Source: an uncultured virus (IMG/VR IMGVR_UViG_3300022879_000001) (lineage: Duplodnaviria; Heunggongvirae; Uroviricota; Caudoviricetes). Taken from it: a stretch of DNA of 20,000 nucleotides. A program made the translations under genes and the position numbers. The notes beneath the pieces were generated by a model that saw nothing but the letters and a program-made list of their open reading frames with translations, had not been told where the DNA came from and made no database searches. Each line of letters opens with the position of its first letter. Positions within the stretch are counted from its first letter, which is position 1. Shown here piece after piece: positions 1,421 through 19,737 of the stretch. The DNA lies in IMG/VR virus record IMGVR_UViG_3300022879_000001; one strand, written 5' to 3'.

Positions 1421-1559
1421 AGAGAGCTCCAATTTATTTGATATATAAAGTGTGCTGAATAGTAATAAAACGTCTAAAATCAATTGGAAATTATATTAAA
1501 AGTTAAATAAAAGATAAATATTATCAAACCAATACATAATCAAGAATAGGTGAATTATT

Positions 1560-1967
1560 ATGAGTGGTAAAATTAAAGTAAATAAAGACATAAAAAATGC
1601 ATTAGATGGTCTCATCTTTAAAGGTGAAGAAATCATATCTGAGAGAACTAAAAAGAAACGCATAGAAAACATTATTCAGTGTCATGCAAAATACGGGCAT
1701 TGGAATGGTTATAAACAATTGAATAATTTAACATTAATAGAATTAACGAAAATGTTGATTAATGGATATGAAGTTGAGCCGTCACTAGAAGAAAAATTAG
1801 TTAAACATTTCTCTGACCATAAAGAAATAGTAAAATTTTATGATGGAAAGAAAGAGTTAGATAAATGTGAAATTGAACAATATAACTTTTCTAGAGGGTA
1901 TGTTACTGCATATGAAGATTTACTGTCAGGAAAAGTGGACTTAAATAAGATTAAAATCACTAAATAA
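1560..1967 (+). CDS. Hypothetical phage protein (135 aa)
   Basis: ORF with AGGTG RBS. LINGYEVE motif is seen in Bacillus phage proteins. Stop TAA lies inside boundary element 1964. Confidence 0.75.
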   Translation: MSGKIKVNKDIKNALDGLIFKGEEIISERTKKKRIENIIQCHAKYGHWNGYKQLNNLTLIELTKMLINGYEVEPSLEEKLVKHFSDHKEIVKFYDGKKELDKCEIEQYNFSRGYVTAYEDLLSGKVDLNKIKITK

Positions 1968-2012
1968 AAACTGAATATTACGGAATGGACACTAATATAA
2001 GGAGTAAGATAT

Positions 2013-2333
2013 ATGACAATAATAGTAAATGTTAATGATTTAAAGAGATTATCTGAAAATTTCTATTTAACGGTGGAGTCACAATTAACCGATGAGATAT
2101 TAGAAAAATGCAAAGAGTATGCTTCAAATGGTCTTTATCGTTATTATCATAAATTTGAAGATTCAGTGGAACAAAATGAAATATTAATTGTTAAGAAAAA
2201 GCTAGAATCAATGGGTTTTACAGTTGAAAGCAGAATCATGTCTTATCCTAAAACAAAAGTACGTTGGTATACTCGTATGAAAAATGTAGAATATCATAAT
2301 GACAAAGTAATGACAGTTACTTGGAGTGATTAA
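2013..2333 (+). CDS. Hypothetical protein (106 aa)
   Basis: AAGGAG RBS upstream, ATG start. Confidence 0.75.
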   Translation: MTIIVNVNDLKRLSENFYLTVESQLTDEILEKCKEYASNGLYRYYHKFEDSVEQNEILIVKKKLESMGFTVESRIMSYPKTKVRWYTRMKNVEYHNDKVMTVTWSD

Positions 2334-2401
2334 ATAAAAGTGATTTTTTTTATTATAAAAAATACATATAACTAAAAAGATAAAAGGGGTAAGCTATACA
2401 T

Positions 2402-2629
2402 ATGATGAAAAAGATTACATTTACAATGTCTGTTATTTATGACGAAGAAGACATTAACGCCAATAACGCATTGGATGCTATTGAGCATGAAATATTTAAT
2501 ATTGAAGGTGTTAAACAATGGGATGTAGATGATCAGAATGTAGTAATTGAAAATATAGAGGTTGAATATGACGATGAAGAAGAATATGACTTTCACCAAG
2601 AGGACTATGTTATACACAATGAAGATTAA
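2402..2629 (+). CDS. Small, very acidic hypothetical protein (75 aa)
   Basis: AAGGGG RBS; 24 D/E versus 3 K and no R. Confidence 0.7.
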   Translation: MMKKITFTMSVIYDEEDINANNALDAIEHEIFNIEGVKQWDVDDQNVVIENIEVEYDDEEEYDFHQEDYVIHNED

Positions 2630-2686
2630 TTAATATGTTCATTTTATGAAATAAAAATATTGTACAGAACTGAAAGGGTGGAGGAA

Positions 2687-3127
2687 ATGGCATTTGAAGT
2701 ATGGAAATGCGTAGAGAAAGATTGTAAAGGATTTGTTGTATTCGATAATGCAGATTTTGATTTTAATAACATCCCAATACTAGATGGCATTTATGCATTT
2801 TATGATCCGTCTTGTACTGAATGTGGTAAGGAATATAAAGTTGTTCCACATTACACTGTAGTAACGGCAGAGGACGAATTTAAAGAAGCTACTAGTACAT
2901 GTATAACTAAATTTGAGAAACGAGAACAAGAGCGTAAATTCGAAAACGAAACAGTTCCTTATTTCAAGGTGGAGAAATTTATCCAATTACGAGGATATTC
3001 TTACTCAGTAGATTCTGTTATGAATGGGTATCGTGCAAAACAACGAGGTGAATACATCAGTTATACAATGAAAGATTGTGTAAATAATTTGGAAAAGGAA
3101 TTACAAGAGTTAGTAGGTATTTGCTAA
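2687..3127 (+). CDS. Zinc-ribbon-containing hypothetical protein
   Basis: GGAGG directly before ATG 2687, though the ORF-track TTG at 2660 is also possible. CVEKDC and CTEC motifs. Confidence 0.7.
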   Translation: MAFEVWKCVEKDCKGFVVFDNADFDFNNIPILDGIYAFYDPSCTECGKEYKVVPHYTVVTAEDEFKEATSTCITKFEKREQERKFENETVPYFKVEKFIQLRGYSYSVDSVMNGYRAKQRGEYISYTMKDCVNNLEKELQELVGIC

Positions 3128-3171
3128 ATGGATAAATAAAAGATTCGTATTATGAAATGGTTTGTGGAATA

Positions 3172-3201
3172 TTGGAAAAACAAATAGTAGCTTGATATAA
3201 T
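3172..3201 (+). promoter_or_regulatory. Sigma-A-like promoter of the nuclease gene
   Basis: TTGGAA-N18-TATAAT with extended -10 TG (TGATATAAT). Confidence 0.6.
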
Positions 3202-3232
3202 TGGTATAAAAATATAGGAAGGTTGTTGTTTT

Positions 3233-4447
3233 TTGTACTATAAAGAGGAAAACTTATTCTTTAAAGGGGATTTATATAATTTTTTAGAAATGAAAAAGCG
3301 AGAGATTAAAAATCACATTGAATCTGAAGAAGAGAACTATATTTTAAATATAGGTCAAGAGCAATTCATAGATTATTTAATAAAAAAATTTAAAATAGAT
3401 ACTATAGAGATACTAGAAGGCGGAATATATGGGGATGAGGTGGAGGAATTAGTTACGTCTCTTTATGGAAACAGAACAAACTTAATTAAAAAGCCTGTAA
3501 TATACTACAATATCCCTTTTAACGGTGATAAAAACCTATTACATTGCGTACCATCGACATATTACAGTATCTTTCCAAAAGCTCATGTCGAAGAAGGAAA
3601 GATAATAAAGTACTTTGTAGTTTATGAAGATTATCAAACAGTTGAAAACAATTTCCAAAAATTCAAAAATGATTTGATGGATTATGTTAGAAATGTTAAT
3701 GCTGATTTAGAGGTATATAATTCTAATCTCCAAAATTTTATTTCAAATATTTTCATAACGAGGAAAACTGAGTTCTTGAGAAGAATGGAATTAAAATCTG
3801 GATTATCTATTCCAATAAAAAAGAAATCAGGCGTCCCAAGTACTTTTTCTATACCTGATGTAAAAGTTAAAAAGAAAATATTTGTTAAACCAATTGAAAC
3901 TGAAAGTAATTTTGCTCCTGATCCAACATTAGACGACAAAACTTATAATGACATATTGAAAATAATAAATGATATGGGTAAAGAGTTTGAACGTAAACCT
4001 GCCGTTTATGGAAATAAAGGAGAAGAGGCATTGAGGGATCATTTCTTAGTGTTGTTAGAACCACACTTTGATGGTAGCGCTACTGGAGAAACATTTAACA
4101 AAAGTGGTAAAACAGACATTTTACTAAGATATGAAGGTGAAAATGTATTTGTTGGCGAGTGTAAATTTTGGACAGGTGAAAAAGGATTCTTACAAACGAT
4201 TGACCAATTATTAGGATACTTAACTTGGAGAGATTCTAAGACTTCTGTGATAATGTTTGTAAGGAATAAAGATATTACAAGCGTCATTGAGACAGCGAAA
4301 GAATCAATTCAAAAGCATGAAAACTTTATTAAGTTTGTGGATGAAAAAGATGGTAGTTGGTTTAATTATATCTTCCACTTAAATGGAGATAAGAATAAAG
4401 AAATAAAAGTTGCAGTTATGCTTTATCATACACCAAAAGATGAGTAA
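3233..4447 (+). CDS. PD-(D/E)xK restriction-endonuclease-fold protein with helical N-terminal region (candidate defence/moron gene)
   Basis: C-terminal E-ALRD...GKTDILLRYEGENVFVGECKFW gives a D...ExK catalytic pattern, followed by IDQLLGYL. AGGAAGG RBS and TTG start. Confidence 0.7.
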   Translation: MYYKEENLFFKGDLYNFLEMKKREIKNHIESEEENYILNIGQEQFIDYLIKKFKIDTIEILEGGIYGDEVEELVTSLYGNRTNLIKKPVIYYNIPFNGDKNLLHCVPSTYYSIFPKAHVEEGKIIKYFVVYEDYQTVENNFQKFKNDLMDYVRNVNADLEVYNSNLQNFISNIFITRKTEFLRRMELKSGLSIPIKKKSGVPSTFSIPDVKVKKKIFVKPIETESNFAPDPTLDDKTYNDILKIINDMGKEFERKPAVYGNKGEEALRDHFLVLLEPHFDGSATGETFNKSGKTDILLRYEGENVFVGECKFWTGEKGFLQTIDQLLGYLTWRDSKTSVIMFVRNKDITSVIETAKESIQKHENFIKFVDEKDGSWFNYIFHLNGDKNKEIKVAVMLYHTPKDE

Positions 4448-4485
4448 TCAATTTAATACTCGTCTAAATAAGAGTATAGTATTAA

Positions 4486-4513
4486 GCAGGGTAGATTAAT
4501 TTCTACTCTGTTT
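4486..4513 (+). terminator. Rho-independent terminator after the nuclease gene
   Basis: GCAGGGTAGA/TCTACTCTGT stem followed by a short T run. Another inverted repeat, TTAATACT...AGTATTAA (4453-4485), precedes it. Confidence 0.6.
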
Positions 4514-4521
4514 AATTAACA

Positions 4522-4567
4522 AAATACATAAATTATTATTGAATTAAATGGATTGTGGTGTTAATAT
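4522..4567 (+). promoter_or_regulatory. Sigma-A-like promoter with upstream AAATACATAA box
   Basis: AAATACATAA 4522-4531; TTGAAT 4539-4544, N17, TG-n-TAATAT 4562-4567. Confidence 0.7.
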
Positions 4568-4612
4568 GACTATAAGAAGTAAACTACTACTAAAATTTAG
4601 GAGGTTTTAGAA

Positions 4613-4801
4613 ATACATAATCATTGGACTTTCACACAAGCAGACGATATCGAATGGGTACATGAAGCATTTTATAGCAAAATAGACGCTAGAGCAGAAG
4701 GAAAGAAAATGTTTAAAGGTAAAGACATTATAATAGGGCAGTTGAAGGATCATGGAAATAGGTATGTTGTAGTAAATCAAGAAGTAATTAAAGTTAGTTA
4801 A
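4613..4801 (+). CDS. Small hypothetical protein (~62 aa) with non-canonical ATA start (not in ORF track)
   Basis: AGGAGG at 4599-4604; open frame IHNHWTFTQADDIEWVHEAFYSKIDARAEGKKMF...IKVS; stop TAA inside element 4798. Confidence 0.55.
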   Translation: MHNHWTFTQADDIEWVHEAFYSKIDARAEGKKMFKGKDIIIGQLKDHGNRYVVVNQEVIKVS

Positions 4802-4834
4802 AAGAACCGTTTTATAAAGAATAGGAGGTGTAAA

Positions 4835-5026
4835 ATGAATTATCAAGTGAAGTTAAAGGAAATCGATTTAAGGGAAGCTGTAAGAATAATGGATCGATTC
4901 ACAGTGTTTTATAGCTATGAAATTGGCACTGGTGTGTTTTTACTAAACAAAGAAAACTTATCTACAGCAATTAATGGAGATGCAATCTATTTAACTCCTT
5001 ATGGATGGTTAGAGTTAGAAGAATGA
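4835..5026 (+). CDS. Hypothetical protein (63 aa)
   Basis: Strong AGGAGGT RBS. Confidence 0.7.
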   Translation: MNYQVKLKEIDLREAVRIMDRFTVFYSYEIGTGVFLLNKENLSTAINGDAIYLTPYGWLELEE

Positions 5027-5072
5027 TGTTTCATTGATAGAGGAGTTTTATTGAAACTAAGGAGGATGAAAT

Positions 5073-5372
5073 ATGCGCAGCTCTAGTTTTAAAACAACAG
5101 AAGAAGTAATTGAGTATGCTAAGTCATTAGGAATGATGAAAGTCGAGTATGATGATGGAATTTATTATGATTTATGTTTTGAATTTCACTCAGGATTAAG
5201 ATTAGTCAATCATGATCCAGATATAAATTGTTGGATTTTACAATTCAAAGAAGATATATCTTATGCTCAAATTGTAAATACAAGCTTGGATTTTAAGGAA
5301 ATCAGTATTGATGAATGTTTAAGCAGTGTGGTAAAAATTAAAGAGATTGTAGAATTAACTAATCTACAATAA
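5073..5372 (+). CDS. Hypothetical protein (99 aa)
   Basis: AAGGAGG RBS. Confidence 0.75.
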   Translation: MRSSSFKTTEEVIEYAKSLGMMKVEYDDGIYYDLCFEFHSGLRLVNHDPDINCWILQFKEDISYAQIVNTSLDFKEISIDECLSSVVKIKEIVELTNLQ

Positions 5373-5408
5373 ATTATTTAATTAAATAATAAAAGGAGAA
5401 AATACATA

Positions 5409-5681
5409 ATGGAACGAAAATTAGTATTAGTTGGAATGTTAGGATTTACAGTTTTATTTGGATGTAGTCAGAGTGATGAGGGGAATGTAAGTGCTAGTGA
5501 TCAAGGTGAGATGAATGTAATGTCAGTAGATAGAGTACACAATGGAGAAGCAGTTATACTTAAACATAAAGATACAGGTTGCTACTATACATATGTCAGA
5601 GGTACTGGCAGTAGTACATCTTCTGCTCCAACTCAGATGATGCTTGTAAAAGAAGGTGTAGTTGTTCCGTATTGTGATTAA
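5409..5681 (+). CDS. Small lipoprotein, DUF6440-like
   Basis: Signal peptide MERKLVLVGMLGFTVLFG|C with a lipobox; ILKHKDTGCYYTYV motif. Confidence 0.7.
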   Translation: MERKLVLVGMLGFTVLFGCSQSDEGNVSASDQGEMNVMSVDRVHNGEAVILKHKDTGCYYTYVRGTGSSTSSAPTQMMLVKEGVVVPYCD

Positions 5682-5742
5682 TTAAATAAATTGATTCTAT
5701 TATCTAAAGTAAAAATTACACAAATGAAATGAGGAGTTAAAT

Positions 5743-5901
5743 TTAAACATTAATAAACAAGAGATTTTTGAAAAAGCTATGGAAGAAGCATCTAAAGTTT
5801 TAGGAGCTGACCCTGCGTATTTCGGTGAAGAAGGAAAAGAAGAAGTTGAGAAACAATTAATTAAAATGGGGTATACACTAGATGAATTAAGAGAGAATTA
5901 A
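5743..5901 (+). CDS. Small hypothetical protein (~52 aa), start uncertain (TTA/ATT; not in ORF track)
   Basis: GAGGAG at 5731-5736; open frame LNINKQEIFEKAMEEASKVLGADPAYFGEEGKEEVEKQLIKMGYTLDELREN*. Confidence 0.5.
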   Translation, partial: LNINKQEIFEKAMEEASKVLGADPAYFGEEGKEEVEKQLIKMGYTLDELREN

Positions 5902-5929
5902 AATAGATAGAAAAAGGGGAGTTGTTTAG

Positions 5930-6208
5930 ATGGAATTTAAATTCGAAGAAGCAGTTTCACGAGGTAGCGTATTTAAAACATTACAAAAACAATATGTAGA
6001 ATTAGACTCTACTCAGAAAAAGATAATCGACAAACTGTTGATGAGCTTTAACTATTCTGAAGAATCTACTGAAATACTTAACTCGATTATTGAGTTAGTT
6101 GCTATTACAAATTATCATCTTGGTGCGGATCGTCAGAAAGATGCTTTAATTGAAAATGCAAAACGCAAAATAGAGGAACTAGAGCATACTTATATTAATC
6201 GAGGTTAA
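5930..6208 (+). CDS. Hypothetical helical protein (92 aa)
   Basis: AGGGGAG RBS. Confidence 0.75.
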   Translation: MEFKFEEAVSRGSVFKTLQKQYVELDSTQKKIIDKLLMSFNYSEESTEILNSIIELVAITNYHLGADRQKDALIENAKRKIEELEHTYINRG

Positions 6209-6246
6209 ATAATAGTCACGTTTTATAAAAGGAGGGAGGGGTTAGT

Positions 6247-6414: not shown

Positions 6415-6472
6415 AAGATGTTGAAATTTAAGGTTAAAATATTAAATACATAATAAAAGGAGAATTATTTTT

Positions 6473-6811
6473 ATGACAAACAAAGATGTAATTAATAAAT
6501 GGAGAAAAGTTATTGAGGGTGATTTTATTGCGGTTAAGAATGAGTGGACTATTCCGAAGCGTGTTTCAGTTGAACAGATTAAAGCGAAGATAAATGCTTT
6601 AAATGATGAGCATGCAGGTATTTTAGTGAGACACAAGGCTACTACAAACTTATACAGAATCACACATTTCAGCGTATTAAATGAAAAAGGTGAAGCTGAA
6701 TATGCGGTAAACTATCATCCTTTTGACGAAAATACATTACGTGATCATGATAAGGTTAAATTTACTAGACCTGCTTCTGAATTCTTTGATGGTCGATTTA
6801 AGTTTAATTAA
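6473..6811 (+). CDS. DUF1653-like protein
   Basis: VRHKATTNLYRI...AVNY...FTRPASEFFDGRF matches the DUF1653 pattern (YRHxKxxxY...VxY...RPxxxF). Confidence 0.6.
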   Translation: MTNKDVINKWRKVIEGDFIAVKNEWTIPKRVSVEQIKAKINALNDEHAGILVRHKATTNLYRITHFSVLNEKGEAEYAVNYHPFDENTLRDHDKVKFTRPASEFFDGRFKFN

Positions 6812-6859
6812 TATATTTGTATTATAAAGTACATATCAGATACAATAAAACAAACAATC

Positions 6860-6890
6860 AGAGTAGGATAAATATTATCTTACTCTTTTT
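6860..6890 (+). terminator. Rho-independent terminator
   Basis: AGAGTAGGATA/TATCTTACTCT stem followed by a T tract. Confidence 0.8.
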
Positions 6891-6898
6891 ATATAATA

Positions 6899-6943
6899 AA
6901 ATACATAAAATATGTTGCGTTTATGTTTATTATGTGGTAATAT
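6899..6943 (+). promoter_or_regulatory. Sigma-A-like promoter with upstream AAATACATAA box
   Basis: Box 6899-6908; TTGCGT 6915-6920, N17, TG-G-TAATAT 6938-6943. Confidence 0.7.
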
Positions 6944-6963
6944 TTAGTTAAATAATAAAAGGA

Positions 6964-7179
6964 GTGATTGAAATGAACGAACAAGAAAGAATTCAATACA
7001 TAAAAGGGTTATCAGAAAATGGATTAATGCACGAAATTGATTATCAGGATATTAAGTTTTTAATTGATATTGCAGACAGATTAGGACAATTTGCAAATGA
7101 ATTTGATCCAATGATTAGCGAAGGTCAAATGAATGCTTATGCTGAAGCATATAAAGCAGGTATGTTGGAGGGTAACTAA
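6964..7179 (+). CDS. Hypothetical protein (~68-71 aa)
   Basis: AAGGAG RBS; real start may be ATG 6973. Confidence 0.7.
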   Translation: MIEMNEQERIQYIKGLSENGLMHEIDYQDIKFLIDIADRLGQFANEFDPMISEGQMNAYAEAYKAGMLEGN

Positions 7180-7180
7180 T

Positions 7181-7406
7181 ATGGAAAAATACAAAAATGA
7201 ACTAATGGAAATGATTGATAAAGCTGAAAAATATGACGAACTATTATTCATCAACAAAGAGAAAACATTAAATTGTTCTTTTTTGTGGTAAACGACAAGA
7301 AGATGTACGAAAACTGGTAGCGAGTCCAAGAGCTATTATTTGTGATGAATGTATCAACTTGTGCAATGAAGCTCTTGAATATGAAGCAAAAGAAGAAATG
7401 AAATAA
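7181..7406 (+). pseudogene. ClpX C4-type zinc-finger domain protein with a one-base frameshift in a T6 run
   Basis: ATG 7181 reads ...LNCSF, then stops at 7289-7291. Removing one T from 7279-7284 gives [34 protein letters not shown], the ClpX N-terminal zinc-binding motif, ending at TAA 7404-7406 inside element 7403. Confidence 0.8.
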
Positions 7407-7442
7407 AACCAATATATTATTTAGATTATGAGGAGGAGAAAT

Positions 7443-7733: not shown

Positions 7734-7780
7734 GTAATATCATGCTTTTATCTAAGTAAATACATAAAAACGAAAGGAGA

Positions 7781-8677: not shown

Positions 8678-8685
8678 TACATACG

Positions 8686-8712: not shown

Positions 8713-8772
8713 ATTTAATGATACTAAACTTTTATAAAGTTAAAGAAAATTTATGAAAAGGAGGAATGATTC

Positions 8773-9092: not shown

Positions 9093-9093
9093 G

Positions 9094-9288: not shown

Positions 9289-9321
9289 TTAAAAGAGACT
9301 TATCATTGAAAGGGATGATGA

Positions 9322-9708: not shown

Positions 9709-9752
9709 ATATAGTTAATGTAGATTTATTATTAAAAATACATAATGAAGGA

Positions 9753-10199
9753 TTGATTGATAAAATGAAGAGAGTAAACGAATTACGCGAATCGTATATT
9801 GAGTTGGAGAAAAAGAGTGGAGTTATATACAGCATGATTGACACTGAGTTAAACAAGCAGTTCATTTATAACGGTGTTGGGTGCTATGTTACTGGCTATG
9901 ACTTAGAAGATGATTATATTAATATTCATCCAATTGATGGAGAAACAACTTTAAGTACCAATGGAAAAAATTTAGGAATTACTTTTAAGCAATTTGATGC
10001 GCATTTTGGAAATCGTAAATATAAAATTCACTTCTATAAAGGTAAAGAGGCGTTTGGTGATGTATTAGAGTTTTTGAAGACAGTAGAAGTTGATTTTGAC
10101 TATATACCTAAATCTGATTCTGAGATCATTAAGCAAGGATTAAAGGAACTTGGTTCGTATCCTAAAAGCTATACTGCAAAAATCTATGAAATTAAATAA
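9753..10199 (+). CDS. Hypothetical protein (~148 aa)
   Basis: Long ORF with GAAGGA RBS; exact start uncertain. Confidence 0.75.
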   Translation: MIDKMKRVNELRESYIELEKKSGVIYSMIDTELNKQFIYNGVGCYVTGYDLEDDYINIHPIDGETTLSTNGKNLGITFKQFDAHFGNRKYKIHFYKGKEAFGDVLEFLKTVEVDFDYIPKSDSEIIKQGLKELGSYPKSYTAKIYEIK

Positions 10200-10233
10200 T
10201 ATTGGATTTTTATAAAAAGAAAGGATGATTTAG

Positions 10234-10458
10234 ATGGGAGTTATTCAACCGAAATTTGAAATTAAATTAAATACAGAACTTGAGGATTTTGATTTACAAT
10301 TTGACAGCATTGATGAAAACAAGATGTTTTTATCTCAATTTAATGGAAATAAAGATTTAGTGTATATGACATTGAATGATAAGCAGTTAAGTATGAATAT
10401 TAATGAATTAAAGTTAGCTGTAGATATGTTACATAGTTCAAATAGTGAAATTAAATGA
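10234..10458 (+). CDS. Hypothetical protein (74 aa)
   Basis: AAAGGA RBS; stop TGA inside element 10455. Confidence 0.7.
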   Translation: MGVIQPKFEIKLNTELEDFDLQFDSIDENKMFLSQFNGNKDLVYMTLNDKQLSMNINELKLAVDMLHSSNSEIK

Positions 10459-10503
10459 TATCGCTCTATCATTAAAAATACATATATTAAAAGGAGATTT
10501 ATA

Positions 10504-10947
10504 ATGAAAACAAATACAGAAAAACAAGATGAATTATTTAACGATTTGAATAAAGAATATAAGCGTAGAGGTCGGAAATATGTATACAACATCATACATC
10601 AAATGAATATCGTTCCTAAAAATACATATGTAGAAACAAATTTTACACCTTTAGTGATGGATGGGATTATGGCTTATATTCAACATGTAGCTTGGGAAAC
10701 TACTCATGAATGTTGTTATTCACTTGGTGAAGAAGAAGTCCTGGAAATCATTAATAAATTCTATACAGAAGTTAAATTTTTAGATGAACCTTACAAGTCA
10801 TATTACGAAATTGATCTTTATGAAAATTGGGAAGCTAATGCTGCATTTGACTTTGAGAATTGCATGACAGAGTTTCAACAAGATGGATTATTAGAGTACA
10901 TAAAAGCGATGTCTATTCGTAACAATTGGAAGCAGCAAGTATCATAA
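10504..10947 (+). CDS. Hypothetical protein (147 aa)
   Basis: AAGGAG RBS; stop inside element 10944. Confidence 0.8.
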   Translation: MKTNTEKQDELFNDLNKEYKRRGRKYVYNIIHQMNIVPKNTYVETNFTPLVMDGIMAYIQHVAWETTHECCYSLGEEEVLEIINKFYTEVKFLDEPYKSYYEIDLYENWEANAAFDFENCMTEFQQDGLLEYIKAMSIRNNWKQQVS

Positions 10948-10989
10948 TACAGTCATTTTATAAAATAAAGGAGAAATGAGGAGTTAACA

Positions 10990-11244: not shown

Positions 11245-11290
11245 GAATTTTATAAAAACAAAGTATTATTAAATACATAAAAGGAGATAG

Positions 11291-11623: not shown

Positions 11624-11624
11624 G

Positions 11625-11852
11625 GTGAACATAAGATACAATACATCTAAAAATGATGAAGGTAATGTAACAATAGAGGTGATTGTTGATGATTTAATCG
11701 TAGCAGTACTAAAACAAAAAGAGTCAAATGTTTTAACATTAGTACAAAAAGTGGATTTGAATACTGCTACAATTAGTGTGATTTTAAATGATTTTGTAAA
11801 GAGTAGTTATGATATAGCTGTTGCTAGACTGAGATTTGAATTAGATTTCTAA
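11625..11852 (+). CDS. Hypothetical protein (75 aa)
   Basis: GGAGGG RBS favours GTG 11625 over the ORF-track start at 11583. Confidence 0.65.
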   Translation: MNIRYNTSKNDEGNVTIEVIVDDLIVAVLKQKESNVLTLVQKVDLNTATISVILNDFVKSSYDIAVARLRFELDF

Positions 11853-11890
11853 TAAAATGAGAATATTATTAAAAATATAAAATAAAAAGT

Positions 11891-12545: not shown

Positions 12546-12576
12546 TAAAAATACATATCTAAAGGAGAGTATCATA

Positions 12577-12828
12577 ATGTTTTTTAAAGTGAAGGATAAT
12601 GAAGGTAATATTTATACAAACAATATGTCACCTGATGCCGATAAATGGATTTTAGAAATTCATTTCGGAACATCTTATACACAAGTAATTGTTCAAGATA
12701 AGATTTCAAACGATCAAGGAGAAATTATATATCCAGAGAAGAATATTATTATTCCTATGAATGAACTACATTGGGTGGATATGATTGCTGTTAATAGTAA
12801 TGAAATCGGAGAATGGGTAGTTCAATAA
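12577..12828 (+). CDS. Hypothetical protein (83 aa)
   Basis: AAGGAG RBS before ATG 12577; stop inside element 12825. Confidence 0.7.
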   Translation: MFFKVKDNEGNIYTNNMSPDADKWILEIHFGTSYTQVIVQDKISNDQGEIIYPEKNIIIPMNELHWVDMIAVNSNEIGEWVVQ

Positions 12829-12848
12829 AAGTTATCTTTTATTTAAAC

Positions 12849-12893
12849 AAATACATAAAAATGTATTGATGATAATTAGAATCGTGGTACAAT
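12849..12893 (+). promoter_or_regulatory. Promoter of the Prs/Nampt operon with AAATACATAA box
   Basis: Box 12849-12858, part of the palindrome ATACAT-AAAA-ATGTAT; TTGATG 12866-12871, N16, TG-G-TACAAT 12888-12893. Confidence 0.65.
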
Positions 12894-12961
12894 AAGTAAT
12901 AGATAAGGAAAGAATAGGTAATTAACTCTTTATCAAAATTGGATAAATACATAAAAGGAGA

Positions 12962-13786
12962 ATGGATATGATTAAACTTAACGATGTAGAAATTGTATTT
13001 GAGAAATTTCCTAATGGTGAAACAAGAATGTTGTCAACGGACATTAAGGATACTGTGAAAAATGATAATAAAATAAGTTTCAAGTATGGAGATGATTCTG
13101 ATTTAATCAAATTAATGTTCCTGAAAGAGTATTTAAATGAACATTTTGAATCGAAAAATCACTTACTTATTTATTACATGCCATATTCAAGAATGGATAG
13201 AGTAGAAGGTGATTCTGCTTTCACACTGAAGTATGTAACAAGTTTTATTAACAGTTTGAACTTTGATTCTGTAGAAGTTATAGAGCCTCATTCAAATGTA
13301 ACACCTGCACTACTGAATAAGGTCAATTCAAATTACATTAACAACGATCTAATTACTAAGGTGATTGAGGAAATCAACTTTAATGAAGATGTGGATTCAA
13401 TCATGTTCCCTGATAATGGTGCATCACAACGATATAAAAATATGAAATTTAAAAATGTCTTAATCGGAAATAAAACTCGAAACTTCCAAACAGGAGAAAT
13501 TACAGGTTTAGAGTTAATTGGTAGTAAACATTCTCAAGGTAAGAAAGTATTAATCTGCGATGATTTAAGTTCATACGGTGGAACGTTTGTTAAATCGTCA
13601 ATTGAACTAAAGAAAGAAGGATTTGAAGAGGTCTACTTACTAGTAGCTCATGCAGAAAACTCAATATTTAAAGGTGAATTATTCAATCATATCGATAAAT
13701 TGTTTACTACAGATAGTATTTTAACTGAACAAGACAATTGGGAAAATCAGAAGTTCAAAAATCAATTAGTTATTTATAAACTATAA
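12962..13786 (+). CDS. prs: Ribose-phosphate pyrophosphokinase-like protein (probable Adps, ADPR-PP synthetase of NARP1)
   Basis: FPNGE, YMPYSRMDR, EPHS, FPDNGA and the PRT loop VLICDDLSSYGGTF; adjacent to a Nampt homologue. Confidence 0.9.
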   Translation: MDMIKLNDVEIVFEKFPNGETRMLSTDIKDTVKNDNKISFKYGDDSDLIKLMFLKEYLNEHFESKNHLLIYYMPYSRMDRVEGDSAFTLKYVTSFINSLNFDSVEVIEPHSNVTPALLNKVNSNYINNDLITKVIEEINFNEDVDSIMFPDNGASQRYKNMKFKNVLIGNKTRNFQTGEITGLELIGSKHSQGKKVLICDDLSSYGGTFVKSSIELKKEGFEEVYLLVAHAENSIFKGELFNHIDKLFTTDSILTEQDNWENQKFKNQLVIYKL

Positions 13787-13812
13787 AATACATAATAAAA
13801 GGAGAAAATAAT

Positions 13813-15495
13813 ATGAATAATTATATCTTACCATCAACATTACTATGCGATTTCTACAAAACGAGCCACAAGGCGGTATATCCAAAAGGAACTGAAGTCA
13901 TTTATTCAACATTTACACCACGAAGTAATAAGTATTTTCCGATTGCAAATGAGGTAGTCGTATTTGGAATTCAAGGATTTGTTAAGAAATATCTTGTTGA
14001 TTACTTTAACGAAAACTTCTTCAAACGATCAAAAAATGAAGTTGTGAATGAATATAATCGAATTATCAAATTTACTCTTGGTGAGCAGTACGTTGATTCG
14101 GGACACATTGAAAAACTACATGATTTAGGGTGCTTACCAATCAAGCTAAAAGCATTAAAAGAGGGAACTTTAGCACCAATCAAAGTTCCTGTTATGACAA
14201 TTGAAAATACGCATTCAGACTTCTTCTGGTTAACTAATTACCTAGAAACTCTAATTTCTACGGAGATTTGGCAACCAATGACTAGCGCAACTATTTCACA
14301 TCAATACCGCAAACTATTTGATGATTATGCACTAAAGACCGTAGGAAATACTTTAGGAGTCGATTTTCAAGGACATGATTTCTCAATGCGAGGAATGTCT
14401 AGTTTAGAATCAGCGATGACAAGTGGAGCAGGGCATCTATTATCATTTACAGGCACAGATACAATACCTGCGATCATGTATCACGAGAAATATTATAACG
14501 CTAATGTTGAGAATGAATTAGTCGCTTCATCAATCCCTGCCACGGAACATTCTGTAATGTCAGCAGGGACTTCAGCAGACGGAAACAGAGATGAGTATGA
14601 TACGTTTAAACGGATTATCACAGAAGTTTATCCTGAAGGTTTTGTTTCCATTGTAAGCGATACATACGACTTCTGGAAGGTAGTTACGGAAACTTTGCCT
14701 CAATTAAAAGAAGAAATCATGAATCGTAATGGTCGCTTAGTTGTTCGTCCAGACAGCGGTAATCCTGTAGATATTTTATGTGGTAAAAATTTACCTGAAT
14801 TTGATGATATTGAAGACGCATTTGCAGAATACGAATTAGGATTTAGTCATGATGCAAAATTAATGATTAATGATGAGTGTACATCTTACAAAGAGAGTTA
14901 TGATGTTAGAGTCGGAAATAAAGTAGTAACTCTTCAATTTAAAGCGTATGATTCTGAATATGAAATTGATACATATCAAGACTACACTTCACGAAATATT
15001 ACAGCAGAAGACAAAGGTTTAATTGAATGCTTATGGGAAACTTTTGGTGGAAATATTACAGATCAAGGATACAAGGTATTAGACTCACATATTGGTGCAA
15101 TTTATGGTGATTCAATTACTTATGAACGTGCTAAAGAAATTTGTGAGCGACTAGAAAATAAAGGATTTGCATCAACTAATGTAGTGTACGGAATAGGATC
15201 TTACACGTTCCAGTATAATACACGAGACTCATTTGGCTTTGCCATGAAAGCTACTTATGCAGTGATTAATGGTGAAGAAAAACTATTGTTCAAAGACCCG
15301 AAAACAGATGATGGTACTAAGCGTAGTCAACGTGGTAAGGTGAAAGTTTATGAGACCAACGGTAGTATTGCTTATGTTGATGGGCTATATAGTGAATCTG
15401 ATTACAGTGACGACTTATTGGAAGATGTATTTATCGATGGTGAATTAGTGCGTGATCAAACATTAGCTGAAATTAGAGCAGTCCTTAATAAGTAA
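13813..15495 (+). CDS. nadV: Nicotinamide phosphoribosyltransferase-like protein (probable Namat of NARP1)
   Basis: CDFYKTSH, GHDFSMRG, FTGTDT, IPATEHSVM, SIVSDTYD, VVRPDSG, IYGDSIT, YGIGS, KDPKTDDGTKRSQRG. Confidence 0.93.
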   Translation: MNNYILPSTLLCDFYKTSHKAVYPKGTEVIYSTFTPRSNKYFPIANEVVVFGIQGFVKKYLVDYFNENFFKRSKNEVVNEYNRIIKFTLGEQYVDSGHIEKLHDLGCLPIKLKALKEGTLAPIKVPVMTIENTHSDFFWLTNYLETLISTEIWQPMTSATISHQYRKLFDDYALKTVGNTLGVDFQGHDFSMRGMSSLESAMTSGAGHLLSFTGTDTIPAIMYHEKYYNANVENELVASSIPATEHSVMSAGTSADGNRDEYDTFKRIITEVYPEGFVSIVSDTYDFWKVVTETLPQLKEEIMNRNGRLVVRPDSGNPVDILCGKNLPEFDDIEDAFAEYELGFSHDAKLMINDECTSYKESYDVRVGNKVVTLQFKAYDSEYEIDTYQDYTSRNITAEDKGLIECLWETFGGNITDQGYKVLDSHIGAIYGDSITYERAKEICERLENKGFASTNVVYGIGSYTFQYNTRDSFGFAMKATYAVINGEEKLLFKDPKTDDGTKRSQRGKVKVYETNGSIAYVDGLYSESDYSDDLLEDVFIDGELVRDQTLAEIRAVLNK

Positions 15496-15504
15496 CAAGC
15501 GTAT

Positions 15505-15535
15505 GGAGAGTCTTAAGTGACTCTCTTTTTCTTTT
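15505..15535 (+). terminator. Rho-independent terminator after Nampt
   Basis: GGAGAGTC-TTAAGT-GACTCTCT stem followed by TTTTCTTTT. Confidence 0.85.
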
Positions 15536-15569
15536 ATAATATTTCCCTTTTAACTAAAATTAAATAAAG

Positions 15570-15615
15570 AAATACATAATTAACACTTGATTTTATGTAT
15601 TTTATTAATTATACT
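15570..15615 (+). promoter_or_regulatory. Sigma-A-like promoter with inverted AAATACATAA boxes on either side of the -35
   Basis: Box 15570-15579; TTGATT 15587-15592, N17, TATACT 15610-15615; reverse copy TTATGTATTT 15593-15602 in the spacer. Confidence 0.75.
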
Positions 15616-15661
15616 TAGATTAAGAAATCAAACATTGCTAAATTTTAGGAGGATTTTACAT

Positions 15662-16120
15662 ATGGAAATGACTACTGTGTATCACGGTACATCTTCTCAC
15701 TATTTGGATAAAATTGAACAAGAAGGATTAGTAGCTCAGAGACATAGGAACCATGTTTACGTTACTACTGATTATGAAAAGGCAAAAGAATATGCTTTTA
15801 TTTGGACAGGTGGACTTCTTTATGAAGAACAAAAATCATTAGACGCAGGTGAAATAGAATTTCCTATGATCGAAACTGAAGGTGTAATTTTTACTTTAAG
15901 TGTTCCCAAAAATTTATTGAAAGTGGATGATTATAATTTAGAGGGAGAGCCAAATCAATATAAAGTACAAAATAGTCTTTCTCCAGATTATATAGTTGAT
16001 ATTGAGGAAATAATTTTCGATGCTTTTTCAGATGAAGACTTTGATGAAGAGAAATATAATAGTGAAATTTTAAGAGCTAGAGCTTTATTAGTAGGTGTTT
16101 CTCAATGGGGAGAAGATTAG
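15662..16120 (+). CDS. ADP-ribosyltransferase-fold protein (Tpt1/KptA C-terminal or PARP-like catalytic domain)
   Basis: AGGAGG RBS before ATG 15662; VYHGTS...IEQEGL...VYVTTDYEKAKEYA...EGEPNQY...LSPDYI is an NAD-binding ART pattern. Confidence 0.7.
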   Translation: MEMTTVYHGTSSHYLDKIEQEGLVAQRHRNHVYVTTDYEKAKEYAFIWTGGLLYEEQKSLDAGEIEFPMIETEGVIFTLSVPKNLLKVDDYNLEGEPNQYKVQNSLSPDYIVDIEEIIFDAFSDEDFDEEKYNSEILRARALLVGVSQWGED

Positions 16121-16158
16121 ATAATATTCGTATTTTACTAAAAGAGTAAGGAGAGTTA

Positions 16159-16899
16159 ATGATGAATGCAAAACAGTTATATAAATTGGCTAATGAATTA
16201 AATACAAAAGGAGATAATCAAATTTATGATGTGATTGATATTTTAAATCAATATGATAGTAGTATTGACCATCATGACACTAAGGTTTATTTAAATGAAA
16301 AAGTCGCTACAAAACGAGTTCATTATCAAGACTTAGAACATGGAGGTAAATATACATGGGAACTAACTACATTATGGTTTGAAAATAACCCTGTAGCAAT
16401 CATTCAAATGGCAGGTAGATATGGTGAATCACATCAAGAACTATTTGTAACTAATAAAACTCTAATGGATAACGCAATTGACTACTTACGCAAGTTGATC
16501 GATGAGGAAGAAGTTGAGACTGACAAATTCATGATTGACGAAGAGGTAGAATTAGATAAATTAACTAATTTTCATAATCATAGTTTAGACGAGTTTTACC
16601 AAGAAAACTTAAATCCTGAATATAAAAAAGATGACAAGGTTATTGCTTCTGTTGTAGAAGAAAAATCATACGGATATATTTTCGATAATACTCCCATAAT
16701 CAATAGTCTGGTTAAAATCACTAATGTAGAAGAAACCAATCCTTCTGAAACATATCGATTTTATGAGGTTGGAAGAAAGTACGATAGTGTTTGGAAAATG
16801 GGCGAAACTCGAAATATCATTACAAATATGGATACAGATGTTGAAGATGGATATCGTATCTTCGGAATTTTAAACAGTGATTTAGTACAAGTTAAATAA
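16159..16899 (+). CDS. Hypothetical protein (246 aa)
   Basis: AAGGAG RBS; stop inside element 16896. Confidence 0.8.
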   Translation: MMNAKQLYKLANELNTKGDNQIYDVIDILNQYDSSIDHHDTKVYLNEKVATKRVHYQDLEHGGKYTWELTTLWFENNPVAIIQMAGRYGESHQELFVTNKTLMDNAIDYLRKLIDEEEVETDKFMIDEEVELDKLTNFHNHSLDEFYQENLNPEYKKDDKVIASVVEEKSYGYIFDNTPIINSLVKITNVEETNPSETYRFYEVGRKYDSVWKMGETRNIITNMDTDVEDGYRIFGILNSDLVQVK

Positions 16900-16930
16900 T
16901 AATTCGATTTTATAAAAAGGAGAAATAAAA

Positions 16931-17881
16931 ATGAGAATAGCAAAAGTGAATTTTAATCTGATTAGTAATCAACGTACAAACAAGAAGAAATATTACTTTA
17001 ACACTGATATTGAAGGTTTAGAAAAGGGTGATATTTTAGTTGTTGATAGTCAAGGTAAAGAACAATATGCAAATTTCTTAGGTTACTATGAAGGTCAACG
17101 AGAGGTATCTAAGAATGTAATACGCAAAGCAACCAACGAGGAATTAACTGATTACTGGTTGTTGGTTGAGGAAAACTTATTAAAATATCCATTATACATA
17201 TCTGATGAAGTTTATAACCAATATCGATTTGGATTCAAGAATAATTTCCAGACAAGTAAAGAAGAAGCAACTCTTAAATTGACACGAAATGTATTGCTGT
17301 CTAATAACTTTACTAAAGGCAAAATTATTAAGAATAATCATGTATTTAATTACGGTACACAAGAGATCACTGTAAAAGGAAATGAAATTGTTTCAGTAAG
17401 AATAGATATGAGTGATGTAGAATTTAATATTACAGACGAACGTAGAAAATATATAGAAAGTAAACTCAATTTAATTTCATTTGGTGAAAATAATAATGAG
17501 CATTATAAAATTAAACTACCAACAAAAGAAGAATTGACTTCTAAGGGCTTCACTAATCGAATAAAAATAAATCCCAACCAGACTGTTGAAAGTTTATCGA
17601 AGTATGGATTTAGTAATCATCATGAGCCTACTTTATATTTCTGTAAAATGCTGATCGATGAGATTTCATTTAGTATCAGTATAGATAAGAAGTCACTAGA
17701 GATCACAAACATTGATGTATTGGATGAAAATTTCTTACAACCTTATGATTATCAAGCTATTTTAATGAGAGATACAAGTTATAAATATGCAAAAATGGTG
17801 TTTGATAAAGTGGATAGTGTTATAAATAAGCTACAAAATGATGGTGTAATTGAAGGTTATACAAGAGGAATGTATATTTAG
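16931..17881 (+). CDS. Hypothetical multi-domain phage protein (316 aa)
   Basis: AAGGAG RBS; N-terminal beta-rich KKYYF...LEKGDILVVDS module. Confidence 0.8.
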   Translation: MRIAKVNFNLISNQRTNKKKYYFNTDIEGLEKGDILVVDSQGKEQYANFLGYYEGQREVSKNVIRKATNEELTDYWLLVEENLLKYPLYISDEVYNQYRFGFKNNFQTSKEEATLKLTRNVLLSNNFTKGKIIKNNHVFNYGTQEITVKGNEIVSVRIDMSDVEFNITDERRKYIESKLNLISFGENNNEHYKIKLPTKEELTSKGFTNRIKINPNQTVESLSKYGFSNHHEPTLYFCKMLIDEISFSISIDKKSLEITNIDVLDENFLQPYDYQAILMRDTSYKYAKMVFDKVDSVINKLQNDGVIEGYTRGMYI

Positions 17882-17915
17882 TTAATAAAATAATTATTTA
17901 AAGGAGTTTTAGTCA

Positions 17916-18116
17916 ATGAATGAGATCAATGACGTATACGTGGTGTTTGAGACAACCGAAGGAATCGATTGGTATGTGAGTGATTACAGCGTTACTCAAG
18001 GACAAGTTGCTGTTTCAGAACTAATAAGAGATGCGAGAAAGCTAAACAAATATGAAGCTGATTATGTTGCAGAATACTTTGGAATGCATTCATTAAAAAT
18101 CGAAGTTATGATTTAA
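17916..18116 (+). CDS. Hypothetical protein (66 aa)
   Basis: AAGGAG RBS. Confidence 0.7.
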   Translation: MNEINDVYVVFETTEGIDWYVSDYSVTQGQVAVSELIRDARKLNKYEADYVAEYFGMHSLKIEVMI

Positions 18117-18154
18117 ATAATAAGTTGATTTTATCAAAGCTAGGAGGAGTTAAT

Positions 18155-18484
18155 ATGTTACAAAAAGGAGATAAAGTAGTTGCAACTGAACATGAAAATG
18201 TTGAAGATATGCGAGGAAAAGTTTTTGAAGTAGATTACACGTATGATACAGGTAGTCAAAATTTAGTTATGTTGAAAGGCAGACATGCATTTGTATCAGA
18301 ATGTTACTTGCAAAAACGAGACGATGTTCAAGGTAAATTAAAAGAGAATGATCCTTATCACAAATACTACGACTGTATGTCATGTGGACATAGTATGAGT
18401 ACAGATGATAATAAACTAATGTGTGTGTTCTATAAAAAGCATTTTCAAGCTGATGAAGAAGCAGTTTGTGGGAATTGGAATTAA
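18155..18484 (+). CDS. SH3/KOW-like domain plus Cys-rich C-terminal domain (109 aa)
   Basis: AGGAGG RBS before ATG 18155; MLQKGDKVV...GKVFEV; CMSCGH...C...CGNW. Confidence 0.7.
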   Translation: MLQKGDKVVATEHENVEDMRGKVFEVDYTYDTGSQNLVMLKGRHAFVSECYLQKRDDVQGKLKENDPYHKYYDCMSCGHSMSTDDNKLMCVFYKKHFQADEEAVCGNWN

Positions 18485-18508
18485 ATAATATAACGATTTC
18501 AATGAAAG

Positions 18509-18724
18509 TTGGAAAGGGTGGGAGTAGTGTCAAAAACAATTAAATATGAAGTCTCCAGTGGTAGCATGTACATACAACCAAGTAGATTTGATTCATTAGA
18601 GGAAGCTGAAGCTTATTATAACGAAGAGAAGCAATGCCGAAGTTTTGGTTATATAGCTATTACAAAAGTCATTGAGGAAGTAGTTAAGCGAGAATGGATT
18701 CCAGAAATGGAGGATGAATCTTGA
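18509..18724 (+). CDS. Hypothetical protein (~65-71 aa)
   Basis: ORF with FDSLEEA motif; start may be GTG 18527. Confidence 0.65.
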   Translation: MERVGVVSKTIKYEVSSGSMYIQPSRFDSLEEAEAYYNEEKQCRSFGYIAITKVIEEVVKREWIPEMEDES

Positions 18725-19182
18725 AATTTGAACAAACGGTACAACATTATTTTGATACTATGCCTAAATTATTTCAGACACGAGTGCAGGTATTAGAGCA
18801 TTTATTTGTAGTAATAGGAAATGGTTATGACTGGATTGATGGTCAACTGGTGTATGACAGTTATTATATTAATGAGGACGAGATTGTATTAAAAAGTGGG
18901 TACAAGGCTAAACAGAACATTATTAAAGATGATTATAATTTTGTTTGGAATACAATGAATAAAGATATCGAATCAATTAGCTATCCATTATATGACACTT
19001 CAAACTTATTTACATTTACAGATGACATTAAAGAGGATTGGTTAGAAGGGGTAAGGGAAACAGTAATCCTATTGTTGCAAAGAGAGGTTGATAAAACTAG
19101 ATTTAACGATTATTTGAATGAAATGGATAAGAAGACATCTACAATGTTAAATCAATTAGCAAATAAATTAGGAATTGTATAA
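18721..19182 (+). CDS. Hypothetical protein (153 aa)
   Basis: GGAGG RBS, TTG start overlapping the previous stop; stop inside element 19179. Confidence 0.75.
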   Translation: MKFEQTVQHYFDTMPKLFQTRVQVLEHLFVVIGNGYDWIDGQLVYDSYYINEDEIVLKSGYKAKQNIIKDDYNFVWNTMNKDIESISYPLYDTSNLFTFTDDIKEDWLEGVRETVILLLQREVDKTRFNDYLNEMDKKTSTMLNQLANKLGIV

Positions 19183-19223
19183 TAGAGCGCTTTTATGAAA
19201 AATAGATAAGGTGGAATTTAATT

Positions 19224-19496
19224 ATGGGAGAAAAATTTGAGGTAGGTTATGTGGCACAAAACGAGAAGGGTCGATACCTTAATATTGCTTTTGGACAAGA
19301 TGAGATTGTTATTGGTGAATATCAAGACATTAAAATGGCGACAGTATTTGAATTTGCAGATGACATTGAAGCAGACTTAGTTTTTGATTCAGGCACTAAT
19401 CCTAAGTGGGTAAACAAAGTTGATGAGAGCTATAACATTGTTGCGAAAGTACATATTGATAATCTATACGATGCAGTTATGAATGATGATTTTTAA
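19224..19496 (+). CDS. Hypothetical acidic protein (90 aa)
   Basis: AAGGTGG RBS. Confidence 0.7.
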   Translation: MGEKFEVGYVAQNEKGRYLNIAFGQDEIVIGEYQDIKMATVFEFADDIEADLVFDSGTNPKWVNKVDESYNIVAKVHIDNLYDAVMNDDF

Positions 19497-19530
19497 TAAT
19501 AAATTACTTTTATGAAGGATGGGCGGATAA

Positions 19531-19656
19531 ATGCTTGAATTAGTTTACGTATATTTTACAGATTTACGCTTCTTTATAAAAGTCAATTTAATTTTAGGAG
19601 GAGTGTATATATTATGGAGATGCTTTGATGTAATGTCTAAATGGGGAGAAAATTAA
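19531..19656 (+). CDS. Small membrane peptide (41 aa; not in ORF track)
   Basis: MLELVYVYFTDLRFFIKVNLILGGVYILWRCFDVMSKWGEN* has a hydrophobic core and lies between elements 19496 and 19689. Confidence 0.5.
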   Translation: MLELVYVYFTDLRFFIKVNLILGGVYILWRCFDVMSKWGEN

Positions 19657-19737
19657 CCATATTGTTGAAGCCAACAAAATGGTATTGAATAATAATTTCA
19701 TTTTACAAAAACAAATACATAAAAAGGAATGTGGATT

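Follow-up and report, generated by a model that had tools for sequence, protein, structure and literature searches.

Clean swaps at gene borders in phage mosaics are mostly ascribed to random illegitimate recombination followed by selection. Botstein's modular theory places linker or boundary sequences between phage modules. Tyrosine-recombinase core sites consist of two inverted binding arms around a central overlap region of 6-8 bp. The attC site of integrons, a long imperfect palindrome (R''-L''...L'-R') of 60-140 bp, travels with its cassette, and the array has an IntI-type integrase with attI and Pc. In T4-type phages, promoter-early stem-loops (PeSLs) have been described (Arbiol et al. 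2010, PMC2839356; Comeau et al. 2014, PMC4122927), and these papers present them as short intergenic motifs that lie amid variable, mostly ORFan early genes at exchange points and are proposed drivers of modular shuffling. In SPbeta, the repeated intergenic element SPBRE is bound by the recombinase-fold protein MrpR (PMC10516654). The present analysis concerns another element, here called J, which recurs at gene junctions throughout a 20,000-nt stretch of DNA (the window) from an uncultured virus of the Caudoviricetes (IMG/VR record IMGVR_UViG_3300022879_000001). J has the form ATAAWA-N6-TWTTAT, and its 6-bp spacers are kept, in order, in related phages in which the adjoining genes are replaced. 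Comparison of these phages suggests, with somewhat better than even confidence, that J sites are recombination linkers for the ordered exchange of gene cassettes.

The window has a G+C content of 29.6% and carries about 45 small genes on the + strand. The sequence-only reading of this DNA had proposed at least 27 copies of the element, each with a spacer of exactly 6 bp. The pattern occurs exactly 13 times at spacing 6 and 0-1 times at each other spacing from 0 to 20; when up to one mismatch is allowed, the count is 25 at spacing 6 and 2-10 at other spacings. In 200 local shuffles (30-bp blocks), exact copies averaged 0.2 (maximum, 3) and copies with up to one mismatch averaged 5.6 (maximum, 13), so that shuffled DNA fails to reproduce the observed count. 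The element is therefore real, with a strict spacing of 6 bp. The number proposed is borne out by 29 junction copies between 1507 and 19706, a count that rests on collinear copies in six related phages; candidates at 1268, 1279, 4519, 6896, 15579, 15784 and 16056, which lie in promoter regions or in coding sequence homologous in the relatives, were dropped. The nine positions that had been given as examples were all recovered, seven of them exact or with one mismatch, and the copy at 10455, which has two arm mismatches, is confirmed by its orthologs.

The per-position mismatch profile is symmetric, TT at -4/-3, the two arms, the spacer and AA at +3/+4 all being conserved, and the consensus is a 26-bp palindrome, TTnnATAAWA-N6-TWTTATnnAA. 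The flanks that had been described (TAA before, NAA after) are present: of 25 copies, 22 have T at -4 and 21 have T at -3, and A stands at +2, +3 and +4 in 18, 23 and 19. Spacers had been called GC-richer, and they are slightly so (0.38 versus 0.30 for the genome). The arms are not a simple palindrome, since 12 of the 13 exact copies have the same top-strand base at both W positions (A..A or T..T), which is a mismatch in a hairpin. Five exact copies read ATAAAA..TATTAT and seven read ATAATA..TTTTAT, the two forms being mutually reverse complementary, and one is a perfect palindrome. J sits where one cassette ends in a stop codon and the following one begins with its ribosome-binding site. Among 382 copies with up to one mismatch, 289 have the end of an open reading frame (ORF) nearby, and the stop codon lies within or abuts the left arm in 171 of these (at arm positions 2-4 in 91, abutting the site in 58 and overlapping position 1 in 22). 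A Shine-Dalgarno (SD)-like tetramer starts at most 15 nt downstream in 203 of the 382. The division of the DNA into interchangeable cassettes of one to three genes that are delimited by J is supported.

The comparison covers seven phages: the window, its relative G002 (contig L002, 132.6 kb) and the relatives G003 to G007, which were found by scans with two junction 18-mers and whose early arms were retrieved. All six relatives have the same J elements with the same spacers in the same order as the window, and the distances between J elements differ. When sites were defined by their arms only, the 21 phage pairs gave 663 collinear matches with identical spacers. The 35 intervals that contain exactly one site per phage had identical spacers in 5 cases, spacers 1 nt apart in 9, 2 nt apart in 1 and at least 3 nt apart in 20. 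For reference, the yopP-yopQ-mrpR DNA of G002 is 90.6% identical to that of G005 and 67.8-72.9% identical to that of the other four. The window and G002 share only three homologous DNA segments (blastn) and five related ORFs, four of them collinear (blastp), and 14 of 48 window ORFs have a blastp match in the other six arms, some of them in other slots. In junction-by-junction alignments, the 18-bp elements stand out as identical islands with unalignable flanks, and conservation ends 0-6 nt outside the arms. It had been asked whether spacers travel with the adjacent gene. They do not; the spacer stays with the slot and both neighbors change, the flanks on either side being unrelated in 518 of 680 J pairs. 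The arms wobble, often leaving just 8-10 contiguous identical bases (e.g., at the site with spacer agttga), and such a length is short for general homologous recombination. This argues, though not decisively, against plain homologous recombination as the only mechanism. The arm class at one slot can also flip between phages with no inversion of the spacer, as at agttga.

The arms and the spacer behave differently when one neighbor is retained. With a shared flank defined as at least 85% identity across the adjacent 60 nt (a looser definition gave uninformative linkage), the 31 pairs with only the left flank in common show 4 left-arm and 15 right-arm differences, and the 15 pairs with only the right flank in common show 6 left-arm differences and 1 right-arm difference. 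Pooled, the arm differs in 5 of 46 cases beside a shared flank and in 21 of 46 beside an unrelated flank (p = 4e-4, with non-independent pairs). The arm therefore travels with the neighboring cassette and the spacer belongs to the slot, with the switch between the arms. Whether breakpoints fall exactly in the spacers had been posed as a test. This is borne out in that the exchange point lies between the arms and homology ends at J; it does not hold for all breakpoints, which are also found at junctions without J. About 12 of some 22 distinct homology ends in the window are within 25-30 nt of a J. G006 lacks one cassette of the window together with the J that has the spacer gtgatt (2334); the missing cassette is the one preceding this J, and the join is at the right arm.

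The distribution of J follows that of the variable genes. J is present at 1 of 36 junctions between two conserved genes and at 198 of 478 other junctions (p = 4e-7). G002, G003 and G004 contain 37, 36 and 34 exact copies, and a reversed-pattern control gave 1, 1 and 0. In G002, 35 of the 37 exact copies lie in the early arm of small genes (1-72 kb) and none in the structural block (approximately 72-119 kb).

J is also found in SPbeta (NC_001884), with 14 exact copies at spacing 6 versus 0-1 at spacings 3-10. Thirteen of the 14 are ATAAAA-N6-TTTTAT, with perfectly complementary arms; in the seven phages of the window clade, 177 of 220 exact copies pair an ATAAAA-type arm with an ATAATA-type arm, whichever comes first. 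The contrast suggests a symmetric binder in the SPbeta clade and an asymmetric requirement in the window clade. SPbeta, Goe11 and SPbetaL1 have identical J islands at the ends of their homology (gtttta, ggatga, ttctaa, tgttga and tcggtc). Blocks that are 100% identical between phi3Ts and SPbeta have edges 1-7 nt from the J sites gatcaa, tttgtc and gaatac, and it looks as if whole J-to-J blocks were recently exchanged between the ancestors of these two laboratory phages. Two stem-loop annotations in the SPbeta GenBank record (2622-2651 and 116406-116431) overlap J copies. The J palindromes are undescribed in the literature searched, which included the available portions of PMC8270828, PMC10516654 and 10.1101/2021.11.22.469490, the 1999 SPbeta genome paper being outside the search.

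J resembles several described systems and fails defining features of each of PeSLs, pdif modules and integron cassettes. Like PeSLs, J sites lie at exchange points between unrelated genes of a variable region. The accounts of PeSLs describe a composite of a sigma-70 promoter and a terminator stem-loop, whereas J has neither signal, and the PeSL copies within a genome are similar enough to recombine (as mini-circles), whereas each J has its own, slot-conserved spacer. Closer in geometry are the tyrosine-recombinase core sites (dif, loxP and FRT), which, like J, have inverted arms around a 6-bp center in about 26 bp, and the comparative data (spacers identical at the 663 collinear matches, wobbling arms that segregate with their own flanks) would fit the identical center, tolerant arms and exchange between the arms of such sites. 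To our knowledge there is no obvious match between the J arms and dif. The pdif modules of Acinetobacter plasmids are likewise small gene modules flanked by sites; unlike in pdif, where the sites that flank a module have opposite orientations (C/D then D/C), the two asymmetric arm classes of J do not alternate along the window, and unlike dif, lox and pdif, J forms dozens of heterospecific sites in fixed order on one replicon. Integron arrays share with the J array small, promoter-poor genes in one orientation, imperfect palindromes and a nearby gene of the tyrosine-recombinase family. In contrast to attC, J measures 18-26 bp and its spacer stays with the slot while genes change (518 of 680 pairs); unlike in an integron, the protein with a tyrosine-recombinase domain (PF00589) is encoded in the middle of the arm with J on both sides, and nothing points to a common attI site or promoter. 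Botstein's linkers, too, are short conserved sequences between interchangeable modules whose order is kept. They are ad hoc conserved stretches between large functional modules, whereas J is a single structured family of fixed geometry at dozens of gene-level junctions.

Generic arms, slot-specific spacers, linkage of each arm to its flank and avoidance of conserved junctions together form the pattern expected of exchange sites that need a central match, a behavior that tyrosine-recombinase core sites show. The favored reading, a little more probable than its negation, is that J sites serve as recombination linkers. Related phages and prophages would exchange DNA at J sites, with the arms as a common recognition surface and a spacer that must match between the partners. 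Crossovers would then join equivalent slots and reassort cassettes, and because a spacer match is required, gene order would not be scrambled. Rare exchange between different J sites would add or remove a cassette. That J itself causes exchange, through a dimeric site-specific enzyme, is inferred.

A candidate for this enzyme is encoded nearby. Recombinase-fold genes had been expected outside the window, and in the relatives the genes for a YopP-like protein and for the MrpR homolog begin about 3.3 kb past the window end, with J on both sides. The YopP-like protein (354 amino acids; PF00589, E = 1e-12) adjoins the MrpR homolog; it is present in all six relatives, with 63-85% identity, and is the counterpart of SPbeta YopP (29-31% identity). 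A phmmer search of PDB sequences with the YopP-like protein gave no match; a profile of the YopP family aligns weakly (E = 2e-4) with the structure of archaeal XerA (4a8e). This alignment places Arg I, the lysine of a Gly-Lys-Gly motif, two His residues and the Tyr nucleophile, and Arg I, both His and the Tyr are invariant across the family. The YopP-like tyrosine recombinase is a candidate enzyme for J. The more specific proposal is a natural form of recombinase-mediated cassette exchange, in which a dedicated enzyme, most plausibly YopP with a possible partner, would act on 10-bp arms and require matching 6-bp spacers; it is offered tentatively and with well under even confidence. Under this proposal, the dozens of heterospecific J sites would be addresses by which co-infecting phages and prophages swap accessory or counter-defense cassettes slot by slot. 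In this model phage family, SPbeta of Bacillus subtilis and its relatives, dozens of structured, slot-specific elements, better conserved than core genes, stand exactly where cassettes change. If J sites are active in exchange, these phages would have a built-in means for the ordered reassortment of accessory genes, possibly including counter-defense genes, the orphan recombinase-like core gene yopP would gain a function, and the sites would form a natural heterospecific set for the engineering of large phages.

Several points weigh against recombination linkers. About 10 of the roughly 22 homology ends in the window are found at J-free gene junctions or promoter regions, and the same gene may occupy different slots without homology bounded by J. 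Spacers are unique within a genome (e.g., 67 of 67), as had been noted, but random 6-mers of the same composition are nearly as unique and give only one or two twins among 63-67; uniqueness is therefore no evidence of selection and was rejected as a selected trait, and it lends no support to the idea that it guards against homology-dependent deletion. A search for reverse-complementary spacer pairs within a genome found none. The counts of J pairs come from seven phages and are non-independent. The claim that selection for exchangeability keeps the spacers invariant is a lineage-level argument, and each spacer may instead have a direct function of its own. The case is comparative, and what it establishes ends with the islands, their collinearity, the association with variable genes and the exchange point between the arms. 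In a laboratory-evolved hybrid, Hyb2phi3Ts-SPbeta (L185), both crossovers are inside blocks that are identical in the parents (3973-5370, 1.4 kb; 13513-18403, 4.9 kb); ordinary homologous recombination suffices for these crossovers, which cannot be placed relative to J. With respect to the enzyme, the second catalytic Arg is Lys in six of six YopP members (HxxK for HxxR). YopP is a core gene that is expressed in lysogens beside the repressor, as reported in 10.1101/2021.11.22.469490, and such expression would also fit a regulator.

The main rival to recombination linkers is a regulatory protein-binding site that is exploited by recombination. J would then be primarily cis-regulatory and would serve a dimeric protein of the phage or its host as an operator, roadblock or insulator where cassettes meet. 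Exchange at J would be a by-product, since nothing else is conserved between unrelated genes. This account has a modest chance of being correct. In its geometry, the 10-6-10 palindrome matches a dimer-binding site, its placement between stop codon and SD sequence is fixed (171 of 289 and 203 of 382 copies), J is confined to the early arm, and YopP with Lys in place of Arg II could be a DNA binder like MrpR; PeSLs, as presented in PMC2839356 and PMC4122927, provide a precedent. A common binder nevertheless fails to explain why the spacers of each slot are nearly invariant amid core genes of about 70% identity while the arms wobble. The wobble also leaves very short contiguous identity for the homology-driven exchange that this account invokes, and sigma-70 promoter and terminator signals are absent at J. 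A promoter scan of the window found 114 sigma-70-like sites (124.5 in shuffles), none of them tied to J, and a terminator scan found four terminator-like sites, none at J, whose arms are pure A/T, unlike the GC-rich stem and following U tract of an intrinsic terminator.

It is improbable that J acts in mRNA as a weak hairpin, whether in termination, in processing or in translational coupling between cassettes. J would be part of the transcript between stop codon and SD sequence and its arms are inverted repeats; the two window copies with perfect arms have folding energies of -4.3 and -5.0 kcal/mol (z of about -2.6), and the arms of SPbeta are perfectly complementary in 13 of 14 exact copies. 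However, six of eight tested copies form no arm hairpin (0 to -2.2 kcal/mol, no better than shuffles), and of the 220 exact copies in the seven phages, 177 would have an A.A or U.U mismatch in the stem. Two positions that would remain unpaired lie between the arms and the conserved outer TT/AA, and a loop need not be slot-specific and invariant. A search of Rfam gave no match, and J is not terminator-like.

Still less probable, to a degree that leaves it very little room, is the suggestion of the sequence-only reading that J is an operator array for MrpR, i.e., SPBRE. An MrpR homolog is encoded beside the array in the relatives, and SPBRE is, like J, a repeated intergenic element of the same phage family. 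It is a different motif. A 13-mer, AAWAATATGTATA, recurs with up to one mismatch in 9 of 10 upstream regions targeted by MrpR in chromatin affinity purification sequencing (ChAP-seq) and belongs to a motif of about 22 bp, ACAAATACAAAWAATATGTATA (ACAAATACA..TGTATA), which is unlike J. SPBRE (ATACA..TGTAT) has about ten copies per genome and lies at promoters, whereas J lies between stop codon and SD sequence; the ten MrpR peaks reported in PMC10516654, from whose regions the motif was derived here, are all at SPBRE promoters, whereas SPbeta has 14 exact J copies. The SPBRE-like motif of the window, at 12851-12866, is separate from J. The last alternative, that J is a functionless by-product of AT-rich intergenic DNA (TAA stops followed by an A/T-rich leader), has next to no chance, for although stop codons do fall within the left arm and the right arm does precede an A-rich leader, the 6-bp spacing is strict (13 versus 0-1), shuffles fail to produce it, the reversed pattern gives 1, 1 and 0 against 37, 36 and 34 copies, and copies are conserved at orthologous positions.

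Two other motifs were seen in the course of these comparisons. The SPBRE-like sequence at 12851-12866, within 12846-12925, is an inverted repeat, ATACATAAAAATGTAT, ahead of a phosphoribosyl pyrophosphate (PRPP)-synthetase-like gene and a nicotinamide phosphoribosyltransferase (NAMPT) gene. It is followed by what appears by eye to be a sigma-A-type promoter, TTGATG ... TGGTACAAT, and is likely to be an MrpR-type operator, judging from its sequence. Similar conserved promoter islands are located at approximately 1268-1300 and at 4511-4604, 6861-6960 and 15558-15652. The second motif, (A)AATACATA(A), occurs 23 times between 552 and 19721 of the window, 21 times on the + strand, versus 3.0 expected (e.g., at 1531, 5401, 6445, 7759, 9737, 11272, 12946, 13787 and 19714). 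In most cases the ribosome-binding site follows it within a few bases. The motif tracks the direction of transcription in both arms of G002 and is similar to one half of the SPBRE operator; it may serve as a promoter element, as a repressor half-site or as an RNA signal.

The 29 J copies of the window are identified here by their spacers, and fractions give the number of the six relatives that have the same spacer in collinear position; no strand is assigned. At the left end, gataaa (1507..1524) has exact arms and a 1-nt variant, gataga, that is collinear in 5/6. It is followed by actgaa (1964..1981; 5/6), by gtgatt (2334..2351; 4/6), whose right arm is shifted by a 5-T insertion (TATTAT at 2346-2356), and by tgttca (2630..2647; 4/6), the exact copy gattcg (3136..3153; 2/6) and gaaccg (4798..4815; 2/6), which is within a blastn island at 4779-4818. 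Next, gaggag (5034..5051), with two arm mismatches, tgattc (5686..5703) and the exact copy gtcacg (6209..6226) are each found in 6/6, the last with all 18 bp identical. Then come tatttg (6808..6825; 5/6), the exact copy ccaata (7403..7420; 6/6), whose left arm contains the stop codon of the upstream ORF, tcatgc (7734..7751; 6/6) and ctaaac (8718..8735; 5/6). Two arm mismatches are present both in gagact (9289..9306), which is found in 4/6 in addition to 1-nt variants, and in tagatt (9715..9732; 2/6). The exact copy ttggat (10196..10213; 5/6) precedes tcgctc (10455..10472; 2/6), in which the arms ATGATA/TATCAT form a perfect palindrome. Four exact copies follow: cagtca (10944..10961; 3/6), with a stop codon in the left arm, acaaag (11252..11269; 4/6), tgagaa (11852..11869; 6/6) and gttatc (12825..12842; 6/6), the only ATAAAA/TTTTAT copy of the window. 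The site tttccc (15536..15553; 6/6) is directly after a GC-stem terminator at 15505-15526. At ttcgta (16121..16138; 5/6) the homology to G002, G005 and G006 stops 0-5 nt past J, and at the exact copy attcga (16896..16913; 4/6) the homology to G002 begins at the first base. The exact copy agttga (18117..18134; 5/6) is ATAATA/TTTTAT in the window and ATAAAA/TATTAT or ATAAAA/TTTTAT in the relatives. The array ends with taacga (18485..18502; 5/6), which has two arm mismatches, the exact copies gagcgc (19179..19196), with a 1-nt variant, gaacgc, collinear in 5/6, and aattac (19496..19513; 2/6), and finally atttca (19689..19706; 5/6).

The link of the window to SPbeta, which had been raised earlier, holds, since the array is in an SPbeta-like phage. 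A Pfam search of the window proteins found scattered domains only (DUF3841, ClpX zinc finger, P22_AR_N, DUF1653, a phosphoribosyltransferase domain and NAMPT), a 316-amino-acid protein has weak relatives among SPbeta-like phages, and in a megablast comparison of the window with named phages the NAMPT gene was the sole match. In IMG/VR, contigs L001 and L003 are identical to parts of the window, and G002 encodes a YonO-like RNA polymerase, a YomG-like tail protein, a large serine recombinase, YolD and the MrpR homolog with its adjoining PF00589 protein. From the YonO-like, YomG-like, YolD and MrpR genes of G002, the window is therefore assigned, on sequence grounds, to the early arm of a soil SPbeta-like phage. 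A scan of viral contigs with the tgagaa 18-mer gave 22 loci, in which the relatives are L012, L015 and L020, along with copies of the window only. Loci were accepted as arrays if they had at least four exact copies and no comparable count at other spacings. A scan of genome contigs with one 18-mer gave, among the matches listed, no element array and no prophage relative; the genome contig L050, with four copies at spacing 6 and 2, 3 and 1 at spacings 5, 7 and 8, was rejected as AT-rich chance. The stretch is contained, by contig data only, in 24 soil runs, of which 19 are filed as RNA, and four runs cover the window fully. In the same runs, contigs were found that match the window solely from J to J (15 listed joints, with sides of 21-36 nt). 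These are co-occurring related phages that have only the J islands in common, and represent neither deletions, circles, expression nor excision.

Some genes of these arms were also observed. The slot between gttatc and tttccc holds, at 12962-15495, genes for a phosphoribosyltransferase-domain protein (274 amino acids) and a nicotinamide phosphoribosyltransferase (560 amino acids), a pair that looks like an NAD-salvage cassette. In the relatives this slot contains different genes, which in G002 are those for YolD and a DNA ligase. A small ORF at 7133-7406 encodes a ClpX-type C4 zinc finger (PF06689, E = 3e-12, in the downstream frame) and is interrupted by a shift of frame within six consecutive T residues at approximately 7279-7284; sequencing error, a pseudogene and programmed frameshifting are possible explanations. 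The early arm of G002 contains an IS605 OrfB/TnpB-like gene (PF01385 and PF07282) on the minus strand at L027:13551-14774, and a 207-amino-acid protein with a Sigma70_r2 domain is encoded at L027:11423-12046.

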